Shown: positions 684 to 58,617 of the stretch, piece after piece
How positions within the stretch are numbered: the first letter of the stretch is position 1
Layout of the letters: every line of letters begins with the position of its first letter
Origin: Candidatus Doudnabacteria bacterium
GTDB lineage: Bacteria; Patescibacteriota; Doudnabacteria; UBA920
Length of the DNA stretch: 64,000 nucleotides
NCBI GenBank assembly: GCA_031291995.1
Contig: JARLHZ010000025.1
Coordinates: 25,174-89,173 of the forward strand
Reading direction: 5' to 3'
The notes under the pieces: generated by a model
What the model was told of the DNA's origin: nothing
The model's input: the letters and a program-made list of their open reading frames with translations, nothing else
Databases searched by the model: none
Translations under genes and position numbers: made by a program

Positions 684-1723
684 GCGGAGGCTTTTTTAAT
701 TAATCGGTTCAGCTTGCGGCCAAAACCATAAAGCTTATACCATAAACTGTCGCAAACCAAATCGTAAGCCCCGGAATATTGCAAAGGCTGGCCCCCGAAA
801 CCAAGTTTGAATCGGACAAACCCGGGAATATTTCCGGAGCTGGTCTCGATGCCCCAAAAATCATATTCCGAAAATCCGGACGCTTTGGCATCAAGCATCG
901 CCTGCCAGTGCATTAAATATGGCGCCATAATATTTTTATGTTCCGCCGATGAGCCGCCGAATAAAAACGTCCTGGTGTTACCAAAATCCACCATGATCGC
1001 CGCGGCCAAAAGCTGGTTTTGGAATACCGCCTTATAAATATGAAGTTTAACTTCCCCCTGATTTTTTAAAGCGAAAAAGTCCACTAATTTTTGGTAATAC
1101 CGCGCCGAAAAAGTGGAGAACTGTTGGCGCTCGGAAGTTTGCAAAATTAATTTTAGCGCTTCGTCAAAAAATAACCCGTGCCCCACGGAAACCGCAAATT
1201 CATCCTTAATTTGGCAGCCGTGCTTTTGCGCCAGCTTAATATTATAGCGGGTTTTGTGATGCATTTCTGCCATTAACTGCTCAGCATTTTTGGACAAATC
1301 AATTATGAGCGTTTTAGCGGGCTGGATGTTTGTGCTCTTGGTTAAAGATAAAGGATTAATGATTAAAGATATGTCCCCCTTGGGCTCTGCGCGGATAAAT
1401 ACCGCTTGCGGCAGCTCCCGCCTTAACAATTCAAAAAACTGTCCGCTGTCCGCTTGCCGCTGTCCGCTTGCCGGCACCGGCCCGTACGGCGCGTACCAAT
1501 AATATTTTTTACCGAAGATCGGCATTTTTAACAGCTGGATTGTTTCCGTCCACTCCCCGCTTTCCGTTTTCAGCGCAAATCTTTTAATCTGCCGGCCCAA
1601 ACTTTCCTGCCATTGTCCCCATTCCCAAGACTGCAAAAAACTGCCGCTTGGGCTTTCGGCCACAAAGCGGTTATAGGAGTCTTTATCAGCGGAAGATAGT
1701 TCAATAAGATTCACAAATTCCAA
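680..1723 (-). CDS. FemAB-family peptidoglycan interpeptide-bridge aminoacyltransferase
   Basis: 347 aa. N-terminal LQSWEWGQW and C-terminal SAEHKNIMAPYLMHWQAMLDAKASGFSEYDFWGI match the FemX/FemA pattern (…HHMQYTMMKYAREHGATTYDFGG…). Confidence 0.7.
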   Translation of the reverse strand: MEFVNLIELSSADKDSYNRFVAESPSGSFLQSWEWGQWQESLGRQIKRFALKTESGEWTETIQLLKMPIFGKKYYWYAPYGPVPASGQRQADSGQFFELLRRELPQAVFIRAEPKGDISLIINPLSLTKSTNIQPAKTLIIDLSKNAEQLMAEMHHKTRYNIKLAQKHGCQIKDEFAVSVGHGLFFDEALKLILQTSERQQFSTFSARYYQKLVDFFALKNQGEVKLHIYKAVFQNQLLAAAIMVDFGNTRTFLFGGSSAEHKNIMAPYLMHWQAMLDAKASGFSEYDFWGIETSSGNIPGFVRFKLGFGGQPLQYSGAYDLVCDSLWYKLYGFGRKLNRLIKKASA

Positions 1724-1823
1724 ATATCAAATAAAAAATATCAAATCAAGTTCAAATGTCTAATTTTAAATTTCAAACTTTGACATTCATTTGAAATTTT
1801 TTATTTTAAATTTGAAATTAATT

Positions 1824-2381
1824 TTAGGCTTTGCCTAAAAATTTCAATGCCTGCTTTAGCTGCTCCTGCTGCGGTGCCGCGTGGTCAAGCTTGCCGACGG
1901 CTTCGCGCACTTCTCTTTGTCCATAGCCCAAAGCCAGCAAAGCATCAAAGACATCGGTACTGACTGCTGACTGCTGACTGCCAATTGCTCCCACTTTGCT
2001 CTTTAACTCCACAATAATTTTTTCCGCGGTCTTTAATCCGACTCCGGAAATTCGGGTAAACACTCCCGCGTCCTGGTTGGCAATAGCCTGCTTGACCGCG
2101 TCAACCTGAGCGGATGACAAAATTGCCAGCGCGACCTTCGGACCCACGCCGGACACGGTAATTAGCAATTCAAAAAACCGCAGCGTGATAAAATCCGGCA
2201 AGCCGAACAGGCTCTGTCCGTCATCGCTGACTTTCATGTAAGTATATAGGGCAACTGAATCCCCAACGCCCTGCTCCAAAATCTCCGGCGTGACAAATAC
2301 CTTATAGCCAATTCCCTGGTTTTCTAAGATTATATAAGTCAGGCCTTTTTCCAATATAGACCCTTTTAAATAAGCGATCAT
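1824..2381 (-). CDS. ruvA: Holliday junction DNA helicase RuvA
   Basis: 185 aa with the N-terminal OB-fold MIAYLKG...IGYKV, HhH repeats (GVGPKVALAILS) and a C-terminal domain III. Confidence 0.85.
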   Translation of the reverse strand: MIAYLKGSILEKGLTYIILENQGIGYKVFVTPEILEQGVGDSVALYTYMKVSDDGQSLFGLPDFITLRFFELLITVSGVGPKVALAILSSAQVDAVKQAIANQDAGVFTRISGVGLKTAEKIIVELKSKVGAIGSQQSAVSTDVFDALLALGYGQREVREAVGKLDHAAPQQEQLKQALKFLGKA

Positions 2382-2410
2382 AAGTTAATTCTAACATTAT
2401 CAAGAACCGT

Positions 2411-2439
2411 TGACAAAGGCGGACATGGGTAGTAGAATC
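2411..2439 (+). promoter_or_regulatory. Near-consensus sigma70-type promoter (TTGACA-17-TAGAAT) with no ORF downstream
   Basis: ttgacaaaggcggacatgggtagtagaat. It is followed by about 700 bp without a credible reading frame. Confidence 0.5.
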
Positions 2440-2456
2440 CCTTTACAACAATGGGA

Positions 2457-2950
2457 TGGGGGGTTCTCGATCACTCATGATCATAGGGAGTTTAGCGAAC
2501 TCACCCGTGACAGAGTTGGCTTCTGTGCCACTCATTCCATTTTTTGGCCCGAGCCCTTAGCTGGGTGGTTTGGTGCGAATGCCTGCAGCACGGCACGAAG
2601 GAATAGGCGCTACCGCGTCCTAAACCCACACCGACAAAAACCTTTGGCAATATTTGCCAATCTCGGGCCGCCAATTCTCATAATTTTGGGGGTCAGGCTT
2701 GGCAAGTCTTAATCTGAGGCTAGCCAGGTTTACGGCACCGCGATGCCACGACCCCCTCCAATTTTAAAAGATCCTGGACGCAGCGGCCTTCGCGTCAGGC
2801 CGTACGGGCCGCATTTGAGCGGTCATGCGCGTCCAGACCAGGGACAACGTTTACCCAGTGGCTTCGCTACGGGAATAACGTGTCCCGCCCGGGGGCCAAA
2901 CGGTTTTTGGATTAACTAGCCGTAATCCATTTACCATTGGCCCCCAACCA
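2457..2950 (+). ncRNA. Candidate structured non-coding RNA(s), identity unresolved (tmRNA-, RNase P RNA- or 6S-like candidates)
   Basis: The region starts GGGG just after the promoter and is GC-richer than its flanks. It has many local and long-range complementary segments (ctggacgc...gcgtccag, gggacaacg...cgtgtccc, ttggcaatatttgccaa, gggggccaa...ttggccccc-aacca). The only ORF (2410-2712) has no homology signal. Partial resemblance to the tmRNA 5' region (GGGAGTTTAGCGAACTC versus GGGATTTGCGAAACCC) and to RNase P CR-I/II-like strings, neither convincing. Confidence 0.3.
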
Positions 2951-3135
2951 AGTTTAAGGAGGATTCACAGCAATTATTTGCGGCCTTAAGATTCATTAGC
3001 CGCGCAGTTTTTTAAAGTTCTCCTCAAAAAAACGGCCGAGATCCATTCCCGACCTACCGAACTTCCGTCCCCCCGGCGGCAATTCGGTCTTTTTTTTGTT
3101 TGCCGACGATGTTATGATATAAGTCTAACTGGTTT

Positions 3136-5256
3136 TTGTGTCATCCCGCATTGAAAAATTGTATGTCCAAATTCAAACTTCAATCCAAATTCCAACCGGC
3201 GGGAGACCAGCCCGCGGCTATTGAGGGGTTATTAAAATCCCTCAAGGCCAAACGCCGCTACCAAACCCTGCTGGGTGTTACGGGAAGCGGTAAGACTTTT
3301 ACTATGGCCAATATTATAGAGAAAATCCAAAAACCAACGCTCATAATCAGCCATAATAAAACCCTGGCCGCGCAACTGGCCGCGGAATTCCAGGAGTTTT
3401 TTCCGGACAACGCGGTCCACTATTTTGTATCTTACTACGATTATTACCAGCCCGAAGCCTATATCCCCCGCTCCGACACATATATTGAAAAAGATACCCA
3501 AATTAACGAAGAAATAGACCGGTTAAGGAACGCGGCCACGCAATCGCTTTTGTCGCGAAAGGACGTGCTGATTGTGGCTTCGGTGTCCTGCATTTACGGT
3601 TTAGGCAATCCGGCCAATTATTTGGAGCTGTCGCTGGCCATAAAAAAAGGACAGAGCTTAAAACGCGACAAATTGCTCAGGCGGCTGACTGATTTGCAAT
3701 TCCACCGCAACGACATCGACCTGCAGCGCGGTACCTTCCGTGTCCACGGCGACGTGCTGGAAATTATTTTATCTTCAGAAGACACGATTATCCGCATGGA
3801 TTTCTTTGGCGACGTACTGGAAAAAATCGAACGGCTGGACGCGGTGTCCGGCCACAAAATTGAGGAGCTGGATGAATTTATGATTTTCCCGGCCAAGCAT
3901 TTTGTCACTCCCGAGGACAAACTAAAAGAAGCGGAAGAAAACATCCGTCTGGAACTTATAGACCGGCTCAAGGAGCTAAAGTCACAGGGCAAAGTTTTAG
4001 AGGCCGCCCGTTTGGAACAGCGCACCAATTTTGATTTGGAAATGTTGACCAATACCGGTTTTGTGGCCGGCATAGAAAACTATTCCCGGGTATTGGAAGG
4101 CCGCGAGCCGGGCAGTCCGCCTTCCACGCTTATTGATTACTTCCCCGATGATTTTTTGCTATTTTTGGACGAATCCCACCAAACGGTACCGCAAATTGGC
4201 GCCATGTACGAAGGCGACAAATCCCGCAAAACCACTTTGGTTGATTACGGTTTCCGTTTGCCCAGCGCGCTCGACAATCGCCCGTTAAAATTTAACGAAT
4301 TCGAAAAAAAGATCAATCAGGTAATTTTTGTTTCGGCCACGCCGGCGGAATTTGAAATAGAGCGAAGCTTGACGCAAAAAGACACCAAATTCGTGACCAA
4401 ATCCAAACGGACCGAAGCCGAGCAAAGCATTATAGACGCCCGGCCAAAATTAAAACAAATGGACCCGCCGTCCATTGTGGAGCAAATCATCCGCCCCACC
4501 GGACTTATTGACCCGACAATTGAAATAAAGCCGATTAAGAACCAGGTGGACGACTTAATAGAAAGAATTAAGGAACGGATTGCTAAACACCAGAGAGTAC
4601 TCGTAGCCACACTGACCAAACGCATGGCCGAAGAGCTGGCGGAATATTTGAAAGAGGACGGCATTAAAGTCCAGTACATGCATTCGGACGTGGATACTTT
4701 TGAACGTTTGGAAATTTTACGCGACCTCCGGCTGGGAGTTTACGATGTTTTGGTGGGCATTAACCTGCTGCGCGAAGGTTTGGATCTCCCGGAAGTCTCT
4801 CTGGTTGCGATTTTGGACGCGGATAAAGAAGGCTTCCTGCGCTCCGAAACCTTCTTTATGCAAATGATGGGCCGCGCCGCTCGCCATTTGGAAGGTCATG
4901 TTGTTATGTACGCCGACAGAATTACCGGCTCCATGCAACGCGCGATTGACGAAACCAACCGCCGGCGCAAGCTCCAGGAAACCTATAACAAAAAACACGG
5001 CATTACGCCGCAAAGCATCCAAAAAGCCATTGGCGATTCGCGAATGGCCGGCAGCAAAGTGGAATTTGAAACAGCCGACGACGAACAAAAACGCCGCGAC
5101 CCCGGCAAAATGGACAAACAGGAACTAAAATTTTATCTGGACGAATTAAACGAGCAAATGGACCTGGCCTCAAAAAACCTGGAATTCGAGATCGCGGCAA
5201 AAATACGCGACAGGATTGAAGAAATAAAAAAAATAAATAAACTAAAAAGTCGATAA
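3136..5256 (+). CDS. uvrB: Excinuclease ABC subunit B
   Basis: 706 aa with Walker A GVTGSGKT, helicase motifs and a C-terminal UvrB/UvrC interaction helix ([17 protein letters not shown]). Confidence 0.95.
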
Positions 5257-36646: not shown

Positions 36647-37696
36647 ATGATCCAATCCAACCAGGACAACGAGGCAGCCTCGGCCTTAAATGACGCTATG
36701 GCCGACGAAGAAGAAATAATCATAGAACAGACCCTGCGGCCGCAGGCGCTTTCGGAGTACGTGGGTCAGGACGGGATAAAAAATAATTTAAATATAATTA
36801 TCCAGGCCGCCAAACAGCGGGGCGAAATTTTGGAACACCTGATGTTTTACGGTCCGCCGGGCTTGGGCAAAACCACTTTGGCGTTTATTGTCGCCAAAGA
36901 AATGGGCGGTAATATTAAAGTTACCTCGGGTCCGGCCATTGAGCGGGCCGGCGATTTGGCCAGTCTGCTCACCAACCTCAGCGAAGGCGATGTTTTATTT
37001 ATAGACGAGATTCACCGTTTGAATAAAGCCGTGGAGGAAGTTTTATATCCGGCCATGGAAGACCACGTGCTGGATATTGTTTTGGGCAAAGGCCCGGGCG
37101 CGCGTTCCATACGCATGGAACTGCCAAAGTTTACCTTAATTGGCGCCACCACCAGGATCGGCCTGATTTCCTCTCCCCTGCGCGACCGCTTTGGCGCCAC
37201 TTATCGCCTGGAATATTACCCCGAAGAAGATTTGGAAAAAATTATCCGCCGCAGCAGCAAAATTTTAAACGCGCCTATCGACCGGGAAGCCGCGGCAGAG
37301 CTTTCCAAACGATCGCGCTTTACCCCGCGTATTGCCAACCGGCTGCTCAAGCGCGTGCGGGATTTTGCCCAAGTCCGCGGCCATGCTACAATAAATCAAA
37401 ATACGGCCGCGGAGGCTTTGAAACTGCTGGAAATAGACAGCCAGGGACTTGATAAAAACGACCGGAGGATATTGGAAACCCTCATCCATAAATTTTCCGG
37501 AAATCCCGTCGGTCTGTCCACACTGGCCGCGGCGACCGGGGAAGAAGAAGACACGATTACCGATCTTTACGAACCGTTTCTCATTCGCCTGGGTCTGATT
37601 GCCAAAACGCCCAAGGGCAGGCAGGCAACCGAAGCCGCGTACAGGCATTTGGATGTTACGCCGCCAATAAATAACCAACAAAAAACCTTATTGTAG
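36647..37696 (+). CDS. ruvB: Holliday junction branch-migration ATPase RuvB
   Basis: AAA+ Walker [10 protein letters not shown], Walker [10 protein letters not shown], sensor motifs and a C-terminal winged helix. Confidence 0.95.
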
Positions 37697-39551: not shown

Positions 39552-39556
39552 AGGTT

Positions 39557-39576
39557 CCCCGCCGCAAGCAGCGGGG
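39557..39576 (+). terminator. GC hairpin after the nucleotidyltransferase gene
   Basis: ccccgccgcaagcagcgggg. A second hairpin plus T-run lies at 39754-39790 (ccggtatggataagtgcgaatccataccg-acttttttg). Confidence 0.45.
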
Positions 39577-40087
39577 TATTACTGCAAGGAACAGCTGCAT
39601 CTTCGCGGCAAGCCGCTAGGTATTGAACCTTTCTTTCCGCCAAAGGCGGATCCGCCTCCGGCGGAAGTTCCCTGCCTGGCGGCAGGCAGGCCTCGGCTCG
39701 CTTGTCCATTGAAAGACAAAGGACAGACTCGCCTACGTCGCGAATAAATAGCGCCGGTATGGATAAGTGCGAATCCATACCGACTTTTTTGATGGCGTTC
39801 ATTTTAGGATCCAGCGAACGCCAATGACGGGGCGGAACGTTTGGCGGTCAACGAGCGGAGCAAACCACAGCTTAAATGCAGTACGCGGGATAGAAAGCTC
39901 CACTTTCGGTCCGTTGCACTTAAAGCGCTCGGAAAAGCTGCCTAGCCCTAAAGTTTTGCTCATCCGGTAATTAGTTTCCACCTTGTACCAAAAGCCGCTG
40001 CCACCGTCCTCAAACACCGCGAGGCCAGAAAGTTTGGCCTTGCCCACCCAAATAAGGACGAATTAAGCTATTGACATACAATATAAT

Positions 40088-40384
40088 ATGTCATATCATA
40101 TTAACATGAAGTCTTTTAATTGGAGTAATGATAAAAATCTTTGGCTGCAAGATATAAGAAAAGTGTGCTTTGAAGATGCTGTTAGAGAGATTACTGAACA
40201 TAGAGTACTCGATAACTTTAAACACCCAAACCAAAAAACATATCCTAATCAAAAAATTTTTATTATTGCGATAAACGGATATGCCTGCAGGGTTCCCTAC
40301 ATAGAAAGTGAAGAGACTATATTTTTCAAAACAATAATTCCAAGCAGACAAGCCACTAAAAAATATCTTGTCAATAAACCTTAA
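40088..40384 (+). CDS. brnT: BrnT-family (DUF497) ribonuclease toxin
   Basis: FNWSNDKNLWLQDIRKVCFEDAVREI...IFIIAINGYACRVPYIESEETIFFKTIIPSRQATKKY follows the BrnT pattern. Upstream TTGACA-17-TATCAT. Confidence 0.65.
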   Translation: MSYHINMKSFNWSNDKNLWLQDIRKVCFEDAVREITEHRVLDNFKHPNQKTYPNQKIFIIAINGYACRVPYIESEETIFFKTIIPSRQATKKYLVNKP

Positions 40385-50213: not shown

Positions 50214-51401
50214 TTAGAACATGGCCAGAATTGTCCAAAAGACCAGTGCCAAATCATTTTTGAAATAAGGGTTGTCGACCAAGCCTTGGAAGACCATGGC
50301 GATTAAGAACAGGCTGACACCGAGAGCAAATAGGTTGCCGCGATTTTTGAGGCCTCGGTAAATATAGAGCCAGGTTAAGTAAATAAAACTGATTAATCCT
50401 AAAAGTCCGGTTTCTACCCAGAAGTTTAAAAAGATGTTGTGGGGGAAGTTGTGTGTGTCCAGGGTCGGGTCGGAATTTAATGCCTCATATTTATAGGCAA
50501 ATCCGTTTAATCCCAGGCCGAATATTGGCGATTCTTTTATGGCTGTAAAACCGTCACCCCAAAGTTCGACGCGTGAGGTTGCGGACTTTTCCCCGTAAAA
50601 AGGAAGAATAAAGCGCCAGCGGAGATTGGGAACGGCTATGATGACAATAGCGATAACAATAATCCCGCCTAAAATCATACGGCGGATTTTTTTATCGGCA
50701 ACCACCAGGGTATAAATTCCGATTGCCGCGGCCAGCCCGAGCCATCCGGCGCGGGACAGCGAAAATAACAGCCCGGCCGCGCCCAGCAGCCAGGCAACCG
50801 GATAAATACGGTCTCTGATTTTTGAGTCCTCATTTTTAATTTTCGGAAAAATATCCGGTATTAAGAATGCCAGAAGCGGGGCGCACCACAGGGCGTAAAA
50901 ATTTGGGTGGGCAAAAAAACTTAAGGCGCGTTTGGGTTCTATGGAATTTCCCCACCAGGCGGCAGGCAGGCCCCAGAGAGTGAAGTACTGGATAAGCGCG
51001 TAGATTCCGGCCAAAGCGAGCAGGAAGTATATCGTATTTATTATATAGTATTTAGTATTTTGGTTTTGCTTGATTATAAAACCGGCTATAAAAAAAGTCA
51101 GAATCGGTTGCAGGAAAATGACGATGAATTGTCCAAGTTTGGCCCGGTCTATGCCCCCAGTAAAGAGACTAATTACGCCGGAAAGAAAAAATAGCCCAGT
51201 CAGCCGCAAAATTTTTCTATCCGCATTTTTAACGGCAGTTAAAAATGTGGATAATTTCTTTTTGGCCAACAGCCAAACCGCAAAACTCAGCCAAAACAAA
51301 AATACCCAAATCATCAATAAATTGGCGGGAAAACTTAAAAATTTAAACCTAATCGCATAGGTCGGCGCCAGAATTAAAGTCAGGATCAAAAAGTATTGCA
51401 T
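50214..51401 (-). CDS. O-antigen ligase / Wzy_C-family polysaccharide polymerase-like membrane protein
   Basis: 395 aa with at least 10 TM helices. Has the Wzy_C-like loop RAGWLGLAAAIGIY preceded by SLSRAG. Confidence 0.55.
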   Translation of the reverse strand: MQYFLILTLILAPTYAIRFKFLSFPANLLMIWVFLFWLSFAVWLLAKKKLSTFLTAVKNADRKILRLTGLFFLSGVISLFTGGIDRAKLGQFIVIFLQPILTFFIAGFIIKQNQNTKYYIINTIYFLLALAGIYALIQYFTLWGLPAAWWGNSIEPKRALSFFAHPNFYALWCAPLLAFLIPDIFPKIKNEDSKIRDRIYPVAWLLGAAGLLFSLSRAGWLGLAAAIGIYTLVVADKKIRRMILGGIIVIAIVIIAVPNLRWRFILPFYGEKSATSRVELWGDGFTAIKESPIFGLGLNGFAYKYEALNSDPTLDTHNFPHNIFLNFWVETGLLGLISFIYLTWLYIYRGLKNRGNLFALGVSLFLIAMVFQGLVDNPYFKNDLALVFWTILAMF

Positions 51402-51404
51402 AAA

Positions 51405-51500
51405 AGATATTAATAGATATTGGTTGATATTAATAGATATTGGTTGATATTAGGCATTACAAATAATATCCTAATATCCCAACATCAACTAATATCCATA
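51405..51500. repeat. Family-C intergenic repeat with an internal 20-bp tandem duplication (ATATTAATAGATATTGGTTG x2)
   Basis: Its reverse complement aligns with 36560-36646 (tatggatattagttgatgttgggatatt... / cctaatatcaaccaatatctattaatatcaacc). Confidence 0.7.
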
Positions 51501-58541: not shown

Positions 58542-58617
58542 GTAGTTTACGAAGTACGAATTTTTACGAACATACGAAGGGTTCGTAAGTTCGTAACCGT
58601 TCGTACTTCGTAAAATT
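58542..58617. repeat. Family-A palindromic element, copy 2 (perfect 14-bp arms TTACGAAGTACGAA / TTCGTACTTCGTAA)
   Basis: gtagtttacgaagtacgaatttttacgaacatacgaagggttcgtaagttcgtaaccgttcgtacttcgtaaaattt. It lies 4 nt upstream of the rsmI start on the opposite strand. Confidence 0.75.

Follow-up and report, generated by a model that had tools for sequence, protein, structure and literature searches.

The spacer between the divergent genes ruvA and uvrB in a Candidatus Doudnabacteria genome is the subject of this analysis. The window, that is, the whole 64,000-nucleotide stretch of contig JARLHZ010000025.1 in which positions are counted here, comes from the candidate phyla radiation (CPR; Patescibacteria), and the nearest RuvA relatives are all metagenome-assembled genomes of the Doudnabacteria. 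The spacer sits between two DNA-repair genes and holds a non-coding unit that has its own promoter and its own intrinsic terminator. Beyond ruvA lies a FemAB-family gene, and the order femAB-ruvA-spacer-uvrB is kept in relatives. We placed the start of uvrB at the ATG at 3163, from which the UvrB N-terminus aligns (MSKFKLQ); the TTG at 3136, which the open reading frame (ORF) finder had chosen, lies upstream of the conserved UvrB N-terminus and was rejected. The features of the locus are the following.

1824-2381, minus strand: ruvA
2382-3162, 781 bp: ruvA-uvrB spacer, the locus of the non-coding unit
2388-2416, minus strand: ruvA promoter, TTGTCA (2416-2411), a 17-nt spacer and TAGAAT (2393-2388), with 10 of 12 consensus matches and TG before the -10 box
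2410-2438, plus strand: unit promoter, TTGACA-17-TAGAAT, with the -35 box at 2410-2415 and the -10 box at 2433-2438
3034-3054, minus strand: hairpin just ahead of the terminator, in which two G-U pairs favour minus-strand pairing, followed on that strand by U7
3056-3097, plus strand: intrinsic terminator, a hairpin (3056-3088) followed by U8 (3090-3097), -13.6 kcal/mol
3110-3118, plus strand: extended -10 promoter of uvrB, TGTTATGAT, with the -10 box TATGAT at 3113-3118 and a TG extension, in a conserved block (3076-3125)
3163, plus strand: start codon (ATG) of uvrB

Relatives were collected by protein-anchored searches of the GTDB species genomes and of JGI metagenomes, supplemented by three look-ups of RuvA homologues. 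This gave about 35 Doudnabacteria loci (designated by L numbers) with the same divergent ruvA/uvrB pair, in which RuvA is 71-83% and UvrB 75-97% identical. The related spacers measure 121-942 bp and are almost empty in L007, L011 and L085.

The unit promoter agrees with the consensus at 11 of 12 positions and is the top site within 1700-3300, which bears out the near-perfect TTGACA-17-TAGAAT promoter reported in a preliminary description of this DNA. The transcript is predicted to start near A2445, and a run of G follows from 2453. The form TTGACA-N16-18-TAnn(A/T)T recurs in 19 of 31 related spacers, compared with 0.11 expected from shuffled sequences, and the plus-strand promoter TTGACAAA-N-TAnAAT is kept across relatives in both its -35 and its -10 box. 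The palindrome GTTGACAA holds the overlapping -35 boxes of the divergent ruvA and unit promoters, an arrangement and sequence block that relatives also retain. The plus-strand -10 box has no role for ruvA, yet it is conserved. Because the -10 box of ruvA itself ends only 7 nt before the ruvA ATG (2381), the ruvA mRNA is probably leaderless.

At the other end of the unit, a hairpin with a T-run stands at the equivalent place in most relatives; a run of six or more T residues is present in 25 of 31 spacers, and the sequence block is conserved. Judging from these two signals, the unit is probably transcribed. The preliminary description had also seen a second promoter-like element directly before uvrB. 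The conserved extended -10 box TATGAT upholds that promoter, whereas the proposed TTGCCG (3100-3105) is not a correctly spaced -35 box because it lies only 7 nt upstream of the -10 box. The hairpin at 3034-3054 looks like a terminator for the minus strand. It was aligned to a hairpin in L168 with a posterior of about 0.9, and the changes in L168 preserve the minus-strand pairing; no minus-strand promoter was found downstream of this hairpin.

The unit points at uvrB, its terminator lies 65 nt before the uvrB start codon, and its position between two DNA-repair genes is conserved. These observations would suit a long regulatory leader of uvrB, with signal-dependent read-through or stopping at the 3056-3097 terminator (attenuation). 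We consider this explanation very unlikely, since uvrB has its own conserved extended -10 promoter past the terminator, the minimum free energy (MFE) and centroid folds contain no anti-terminator pairing, and neither a riboswitch nor a T-box was matched. In relatives, moreover, such a leader would be hypervariable and tRNA-bearing, unlike regulatory leaders.

The ORFs in the region measure 100, 58, 57 and 34 amino acids, and none of them has a Pfam match. Their codon-usage log-odds range from -0.13 to -0.42; in-frame pieces of real genes score 0.405 ± 0.128, with 0.15 as their minimum. The 100-residue ORF (2410-2712), which the preliminary description had regarded as the only one in the region and as not protein-like, starts within the -35 hexamer, ahead of the point where the transcript is predicted to begin. 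Both its codon usage and its lack of a Pfam match agree with that judgement. The ORF-free region with its own promoter is therefore upheld as an independent non-coding unit, now with a terminator and about 650 nt long, and the combination of own promoter, own intrinsic terminator and no ORF is that of an independent stable-RNA gene.

The GC content across 2401-3000 is 0.525-0.605. The sequence directly on either side has 0.39-0.44 and the adjacent genes have 0.45-0.51; the region is GC-richer than its surroundings, as had been claimed, but only modestly so. The z-score of its MFE is -5.8 on the plus strand and -4.9 on the minus strand. When the whole window was tiled in 660-nt pieces, the region ranked 4th of 96 (z = -4.6; background mean -1.24, standard deviation 1.65). 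The region is clearly structured, in agreement with the many complementarities first noticed in it, though it is no unique or extreme outlier.

To describe this structure, the transcript was folded alone, and the modules were then folded individually against 200 shuffles each. The results showed that the transcript of about 650 nt resolves into seven or eight discrete GC-rich modules of 46-128 nt, joined by short U- or AU-rich linkers. Single modules fold alone at z-scores of -2.8 to -5.2 with well-defined ensembles, and none or one of the 200 shuffles was as stable. The named modules and the last linker are listed below.

2450-2541, plus strand: H1, long irregular hairpin, -35.2 kcal/mol, z = -3.2; its tip contains GGGAGUUUAGCGAACUC, a string already flagged in the preliminary description
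2546-2669, plus strand: M2, cloverleaf-shaped four-way junction, -50.4 kcal/mol, z = -2.8, 0 of 200 shuffles as stable; 8-bp closing stem GGCCCGAG/CUCGGGCC, U6 before it and G-CCA (2670-2673) after it
2688-2756, plus strand: H3, branched hairpin, -37.7 kcal/mol, z = -4.4; closed by GGGGGUC/GACCCCC, with U4 before it and U-CCA (2757-2760) after it
2774-2836, plus strand: M4, three-way junction, -36.5 kcal/mol, z = -4.4, MFE frequency 0.51; closed by CUGGACGC/GCGUCCAG, with A-CCA (2837-2840) after it
2841-2886, plus strand: H5, hairpin GGGACAACG.../...CGUGUCCC, then GCCC, -24.1 kcal/mol, z = -4.1
2891-2945, plus strand: H6, hairpin with a 9-bp closing stem GGGGGCCAA/UUGGCCCCC, -30.6 kcal/mol, z = -5.2; then AA-CCA (2946-2950), one base out of register
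2951-2965, plus strand: AU-rich linker containing the Shine-Dalgarno (SD)-like sequence AAGGAGGA at 2956-2963
2957-3024, plus strand: H7, hairpin pairing GGAGGAUUC with AGUUCUCCU, -18.6 kcal/mol, z = -2.8

Hallmarks of tRNA precursors are a U-run, a 5' G, and a closing stem with a discriminator base and CCA behind it. In the window, M2 and H3 start with G immediately after U-runs, and M2, H3 and M4 each end as an acceptor-end mimic, with a GC-rich stem of at least about 7 bp, a discriminator and CCA. We examined this feature across the family by scoring every CCA that is preceded, at a distance of exactly one nucleotide, by the 3' strand of a GC-rich stem that has 7 bp or more and closes 27-150 nt, a test that is independent of the global fold. 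On the plus strand of 35 spacers, 28 of 326 CCA sites (8.6%) scored, which places CCA first among the 64 trinucleotides. The mean for all trinucleotides in those spacers is 3.6%, CCA on the minus strand scores at 4.2%, and CCA in the whole window at 2.0-2.2%. About five of the 28 matches are true tRNAs, and the excess persists without them. The window itself contributes three consecutive strict matches, which coincide with the MFE-defined modules M2, H3 and M4.

The relatives carry true tRNA genes in the same unit, all of them directed toward uvrB: Gln and Lys in L013, Arg and Asn in L087, Trp in L099, and Thr in L168. The L015 spacer gave two weak tRNA matches. TRNA-like genes with 6-nt or oversized anticodon loops lie within the unit in L020 (3851-3930), L094 (422-496) and L098 (2164-2236), for which ARAGORN reports "anticodons" of 4 or 2 nt. 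The N-CCA hairpins of some species share both their position and their trailer, GCAAUAUUAAAGAGGAUU, with true tRNAs of other species, as a comparison of L010 with L013 shows. By eye, a tRNA with a D-loop insertion of about 55 nt is apparent in L020, and a Phe-like cloverleaf can be read in L101.

Rfam release 15 was used to search for known RNA families; gathering thresholds were applied to the entire window and to 36 related loci, and E≤10 to 2300-3250 and the L095 spacer. At gathering thresholds no family, including tRNA, was found across the entire 64 kb, and the E≤10 scan of 2300-3250 returned only three chance-level matches (a CRISPR repeat, tfoR on the terminator, and RT-6). The search with tmRNA, RNase P, 6S and signal recognition particle (SRP) RNA models that the preliminary description had suggested was thus negative at gathering thresholds, with matches at chance level only at E≤10. 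In the related loci the matches were tRNAs and one group II intron only. ARAGORN at default settings found neither tRNA nor tmRNA in the window, and at thresholds of 60-80%, in intron and tmRNA modes, it made only scattered calls on both strands that fall off the modules. The modules of the window fail as tRNAs: they have no D- or T-loop signatures and are negative with Rfam RF00005 and with ARAGORN.

Several specific candidates were rejected on these grounds. For tmRNA, Rfam and ARAGORN are negative and no T-arm is seen by eye; at the 80% threshold ARAGORN calls only a tmRNA in permuted form, whose tag is implausible and which lies on the opposite strand. RNase P RNA (RF00010, RF00011) is matched neither in 2300-3250 nor in the L095 spacer at E≤10, and the interior of the unit is unconserved in relatives. 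6S RNA has no Rfam match, and the fold is a chain of separate modules, not a single rod. Group I and group II introns have no Rfam match in the window, although the same search detects the group II intron in L083. The similarity to tmRNA 5' elements and to CR-I/CR-II strings of RNase P RNA that had been pointed out was reproduced by no model in Rfam or ARAGORN.

A missing Rfam match alone is not decisive, and conservation is the better test, because CPR RNase P RNAs are divergent: they often score under the Rfam cutoffs and have to be refolded by hand (Lui et al. 2021, PMC8172020). This report of divergent RNase P RNA was also the only literature that we found on non-coding RNAs of Doudnabacteria or CPR. 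In blastn and nhmmer comparisons with 38 related spacers, alignment of the ruvA-uvrB spacer is confined to its two ends, in the promoter block (about 2386-2471) and in the block of the terminator and the uvrB promoter (about 3030-3135). RNase P, tmRNA, SRP and 6S RNAs would align at this distance, and on this sequence comparison we reject a housekeeping RNA with high confidence. A divergent housekeeping RNA (RNase P RNA, tmRNA, 6S or SRP RNA) missed by the standard models would account for a long structured transcript predicted from a strong promoter, and the published divergence of CPR RNase P RNAs makes such a miss conceivable (PMC8172020). The probability of this reading is nonetheless close to nil: no such family appears at E≤10 in the window region or the L095 spacer, ARAGORN finds no tmRNA, the syntenic spacers are unconserved in sequence, which is incompatible with universally conserved cores, and relatives hold tRNAs, insertion sequence (IS) fragments or almost nothing at this place. 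The housekeeping RNA first proposed for this locus consequently fails both on the models and on the unalignable interior. The alternative proposed with it, a new structured RNA, holds in so far as the unit is structured and non-coding; it does not hold as a single large RNA, since relatives show interchangeable tRNA-like modules.

Most related spacers are themselves strongly structured, with z-scores of -4 to -13. The relatives conserve a layout, consisting of promoter, module chain, SD-like motif and terminator, and not a sequence: module sequences are replaced completely between species, and the architecture of folds and ends persists. Some modules can be aligned within subsets of the species, which arrange them in varying orders; in L082p, for instance, the 5' module of L022 occurs together with the 3' module of L107. 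In one shared three-way junction, compensatory changes affect 5 of 21 predicted pairs among the alignable relatives.

Two of the modules recur in several relatives. Module M_A, found in L095, L107, L099, L093 and L088, begins GGGGUYGCGGUCCCAUAAGGGAUGAGG, and its closing stem is followed by C-CCA. Module M_B, found in L095, L107, L082, L084, L001, L004 and L081, begins GGAGGAAUUUGGGC and forms a three-way junction, one hairpin of which is AAAAUCCGCGG...CCGCGGAUUUU; some pairs show compensatory changes. Neither module, both of which lie in spacers upstream of ruvA, matches an Rfam family. As candidates for a divergent RNase P RNA or tmRNA they were rejected, with no model match and with CR-I/CR-V and a T-arm unseen by eye. 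A "5S-like" start in L082p, L022 and L096 was also rejected, as it has no Rfam 5S match and its arms differ.

The SD-like sequence in the last linker is a further part of the layout. The motif (A/U)(A/G/U)(A/G)GAGG(A/G) occurs 30 times on the plus strand of 31 spacers, compared with 6.1 ± 2.4 in shuffles, an excess of about five-fold, and is present in 24 of the 31. It lies from a few to about 20 nt downstream of the 3' end of a stem or tRNA, including the true tRNAs of L013 and L087. A tRNA follows it directly in L099, L094, L087 and L168; elsewhere it is followed by non-homologous sequence with no conserved ORF. In the window, the motif at 2956-2963 has no start codon with an ORF behind it, and in the predicted fold its partner is UCUCCU, 60 nt downstream. 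An SD without a downstream ORF at a conserved position is the sequence pattern of a STAB-SD. Strong SD sequences are rare in the window, with a handful of AGGAGG-type sites before real ORFs, and most window genes seem to be without a strong SD or leaderless.

A perfect SD could also belong to a small protein, encoded either behind AAGGAGGA or in the 100-residue ORF. The ORFs of 100 and 58 residues, and those found in the spacers of L008 and L009, fit this idea. In L008 a 66-residue ORF lies behind an AAGGAGG motif. In L009 a 128-residue ORF (3435-3821, on the minus strand of the locus, which is the uvrB orientation) lies in a spacer with a z-score of about 0; by eye, it is apparently an N-terminal fragment of a helix-turn-helix protein or transposase. 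We nevertheless regard a small protein as extremely unlikely: in the window no ORF with a start codon follows the motif, relatives have tRNAs or non-homologous sequence after it, the ORFs are Pfam-negative with non-coding codon usage, and the longest starts before the predicted transcript.

The same plasticity of the locus could mean that the unit is a remnant of mobile or repeated DNA, such as hairpin repeats of the miniature inverted-repeat transposable element (MITE) type, an ORF-less intron or integration scars. Besides the IS-like ORF of L009, L083 carries a group II intron (583-821, D1-D4, 108 bits) upstream of ruvA, where uvrB is no longer adjacent, the repeat TTCGCTAAAGCTWCGG stands by uvrB in L004, L022 and L098, and modules are reshuffled among species. 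Very little probability attaches to this explanation in our view. No repeats were found inside the region, none of its parts recurs in the rest of the 64-kb window, its borders show neither terminal inverted repeats nor target duplications, and no intron family was matched. The phage and plasmid collections gave no match, and neither did viral contigs for one 21-nt piece of M4. Five viral-contig matches to a 19-mer of the relatives' M_B all lie within coding DNA and were dismissed as chance. As for the repeat itself, the last 100-150 bp before uvrB in L004, L022, L096 and L098 hold a short extra copy of the uvrB 5' end (in L096, 16 residues and a stop), after which, before the real uvrB start, comes a hairpin element with TTCGCTAAAGCTWCGG, in L096 as a close variant. 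The exact element recurs in L004, L022 and L098/L100, and elsewhere in L024; the window has no copy. It resembles a small insertion element with duplication of the target.

Taken together, these results lead us to read the region as an independent unit for stable, non-coding RNA that is organised like a tRNA operon and in which each module is either a tRNA-like RNA specific to its lineage or a decayed tRNA. We hold this interpretation to be about evenly balanced between right and wrong. In this scheme, the sigma-70 promoter at 2410-2438 would start a primary transcript of about 650 nt near 2445, and the intrinsic terminator would stop it at about 3097, before the uvrB promoter. The transcript would be a chain of independently folding modules and not one large RNA. 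The tRNA-maturation machinery may excise these modules, with RNase P acting at the 5' side and trimming proceeding to the encoded CCA at the 3' side, and the modules would be tRNA-like RNAs or late-stage descendants of tRNA genes. We infer both the excision and the tRNA-like nature because of the N-CCA ends, the G after the U-run and the tRNA genes of sister species. The single AAGGAGGA in the last linker might bind the 3' end of 16S rRNA and shield the last module from 5' exonuclease, in the manner of a STAB-SD.

A number of observations weigh against this interpretation. The z-score of the region is within about 2 standard deviations of the window background. Both strands fold about equally well, and only 19 of 207 pairs are G-U, so the fold cannot identify the transcribed strand. 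Similarity of the interior (about 2470-3030) to the syntenic spacers of relatives is undetectable by blastn and nhmmer, and the covariation test over orthologous spacers that had been proposed for the region came to nothing, as its interior aligns to no relative. A covariance model built on the single sequence of M2, the largest module, matches nothing but M2 itself in 295 kb of related loci, and the sole other copy, on the Logan contig L080, is identical over the whole region, leaving no variation and no measurable covariation. No module scores as a tRNA even under relaxed settings. Three N-CCA ends per 650 nt amount to about ten times the background rate, but clusters of three also arise by chance within genes elsewhere in the window, for example at 36858-37199. 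Finally, the predicted pairing partner of the SD-like motif is inconsistent between species.

As regards the modules themselves, a function is favoured by the intact closing stems, by the retained plus-strand -10 box and by a layout that is kept in units without tRNAs. It is disfavoured by the complete sequence turnover, the variable spacer size, the near-empty spacers and the absence of strand asymmetry. The contrary extreme would be functionless wreckage, in which an ancestral tRNA array decayed lineage by lineage and the window retains pseudo-tRNA remnants transcribed by way of the shared -35 palindrome. We regard this as possible, though rather unlikely. It would fit the tRNA identities that survive, which differ by species, the degenerate tRNA-like genes in L015, L020, L094, L098 and L101 (the last Phe-like, by eye), the interior that cannot be aligned between species, and the palindrome common to both promoters. 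It would also fit the near-absence of spacer content in L007, L011 and L085 within a size range of 121-942 bp, as well as the arrival of other sequences at the locus, a transposase-like ORF in L009 and a group II intron in L083. However, neutral decay should ruin stems, whereas the GC-rich closing stems of 7-9 bp are intact, with z-scores of -3 to -5 here and down to -13 in relatives. The plus-strand -10 box is conserved though useless to ruvA, the SD-like motif and the terminator are kept in species without a tRNA in the unit, and 650 bases without any use should have been lost from a streamlined genome.

At the functional end of the range, the unit could be a dedicated operon of fast-diversifying acceptor-end mimics (stem plus NCCA) that work outside translation, either by carrying aminoacyl groups for the neighbouring FemAB-type peptidoglycan transferase or as decoys for nucleases that target tRNAs. 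A role as decoy or spare substrate would account for the rapid replacement of the modules and for the altered anticodon loops in some tRNA-like genes of relatives. We think such an operon quite unlikely.

Among known systems, the unit of the window most resembles, under the tRNA-operon interpretation, bacterial tRNA operons and arrays, including those with pseudo-tRNAs. They share a strong promoter, compact GC-rich units with U- or AU-rich spacers, an intrinsic terminator, and units ending in an acceptor-like stem, discriminator and encoded CCA; sister species hold tRNAs at this very place. Unlike the members of such operons, the window modules are not recognisable tRNAs, vary from 46 to 128 nt and are without D- or T-loop signatures, the unit content is fully replaced between close species of Doudnabacteria, and the SD-like motif is a fixed part. 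RNAs that are processed by tRNA enzymes and do not decode include tRNA-like RNAs and minihelices, such as mascRNA-type ends, bacterial YrlA and viral tRNA-like structures. The window modules would resemble these in their acceptor-end mimicry (stem plus NCCA) and in borrowing RNase P and the CCA machinery. They differ in that there is no sequence or family relation, several modules stand in tandem, and no partner protein (Ro/Rsr) adjoins them. STAB-SD sequences are 5' stabilisers of Gram-positive mRNAs, as in cryIIIA of Bacillus thuringiensis. The motif of the window would be similar as an SD unused for translation initiation near the 5' end of the RNA it would protect; it differs in lying inside a non-coding precursor and in its predicted pairing with the downstream UCUCCU. 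With RNase P RNA, tmRNA and 6S RNA the unit shares its own promoter and terminator, high structure and lack of an ORF, and it differs from them in being modular, in matching no model and in lacking conservation between species.

Three other structured sites were noted in the window. A near-perfect palindrome at 58546-58614 has 33-nt arms of TACGAA-type repeats, and its 660-nt tile is the most structured in the window (z = -7.2). Between two minus-strand genes, 51218-51500 contains tandem copies of GATATTAATAGATATTGGTT and inverted AATATCC-type repeats, with a 400-nt tile at z = -9.7. The inverted repeat at 51218-51253 includes TGTGGATAA, a perfect complement of the DnaA box, and this site could be an origin-like or operator region. 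The third site, 39552-40040, is ORF-poor, GC-rich and hairpin-rich, with a z-score of about -5 for 39552-40367 and no Rfam match; it includes a palindrome (39635-39666) and a terminator-like hairpin with a T-run (39760-39791).

CPR genomes are tiny and their non-coding RNA content is almost unexplored, and at this locus a strongly promoted unit closed by a terminator has stayed in position throughout a lineage, while from species to species the tRNAs and tRNA-like modules inside it are exchanged or rewritten. The locus also calls for caution, as a promoter plus structure alone does not identify a housekeeping RNA. Modules M_A and M_B are worth describing in their own right. If the modules are functional, they would be tRNA mimics of a new, quickly evolving class; otherwise, the unit would be a record of the loss and relocation of tRNA genes in streamlined genomes.

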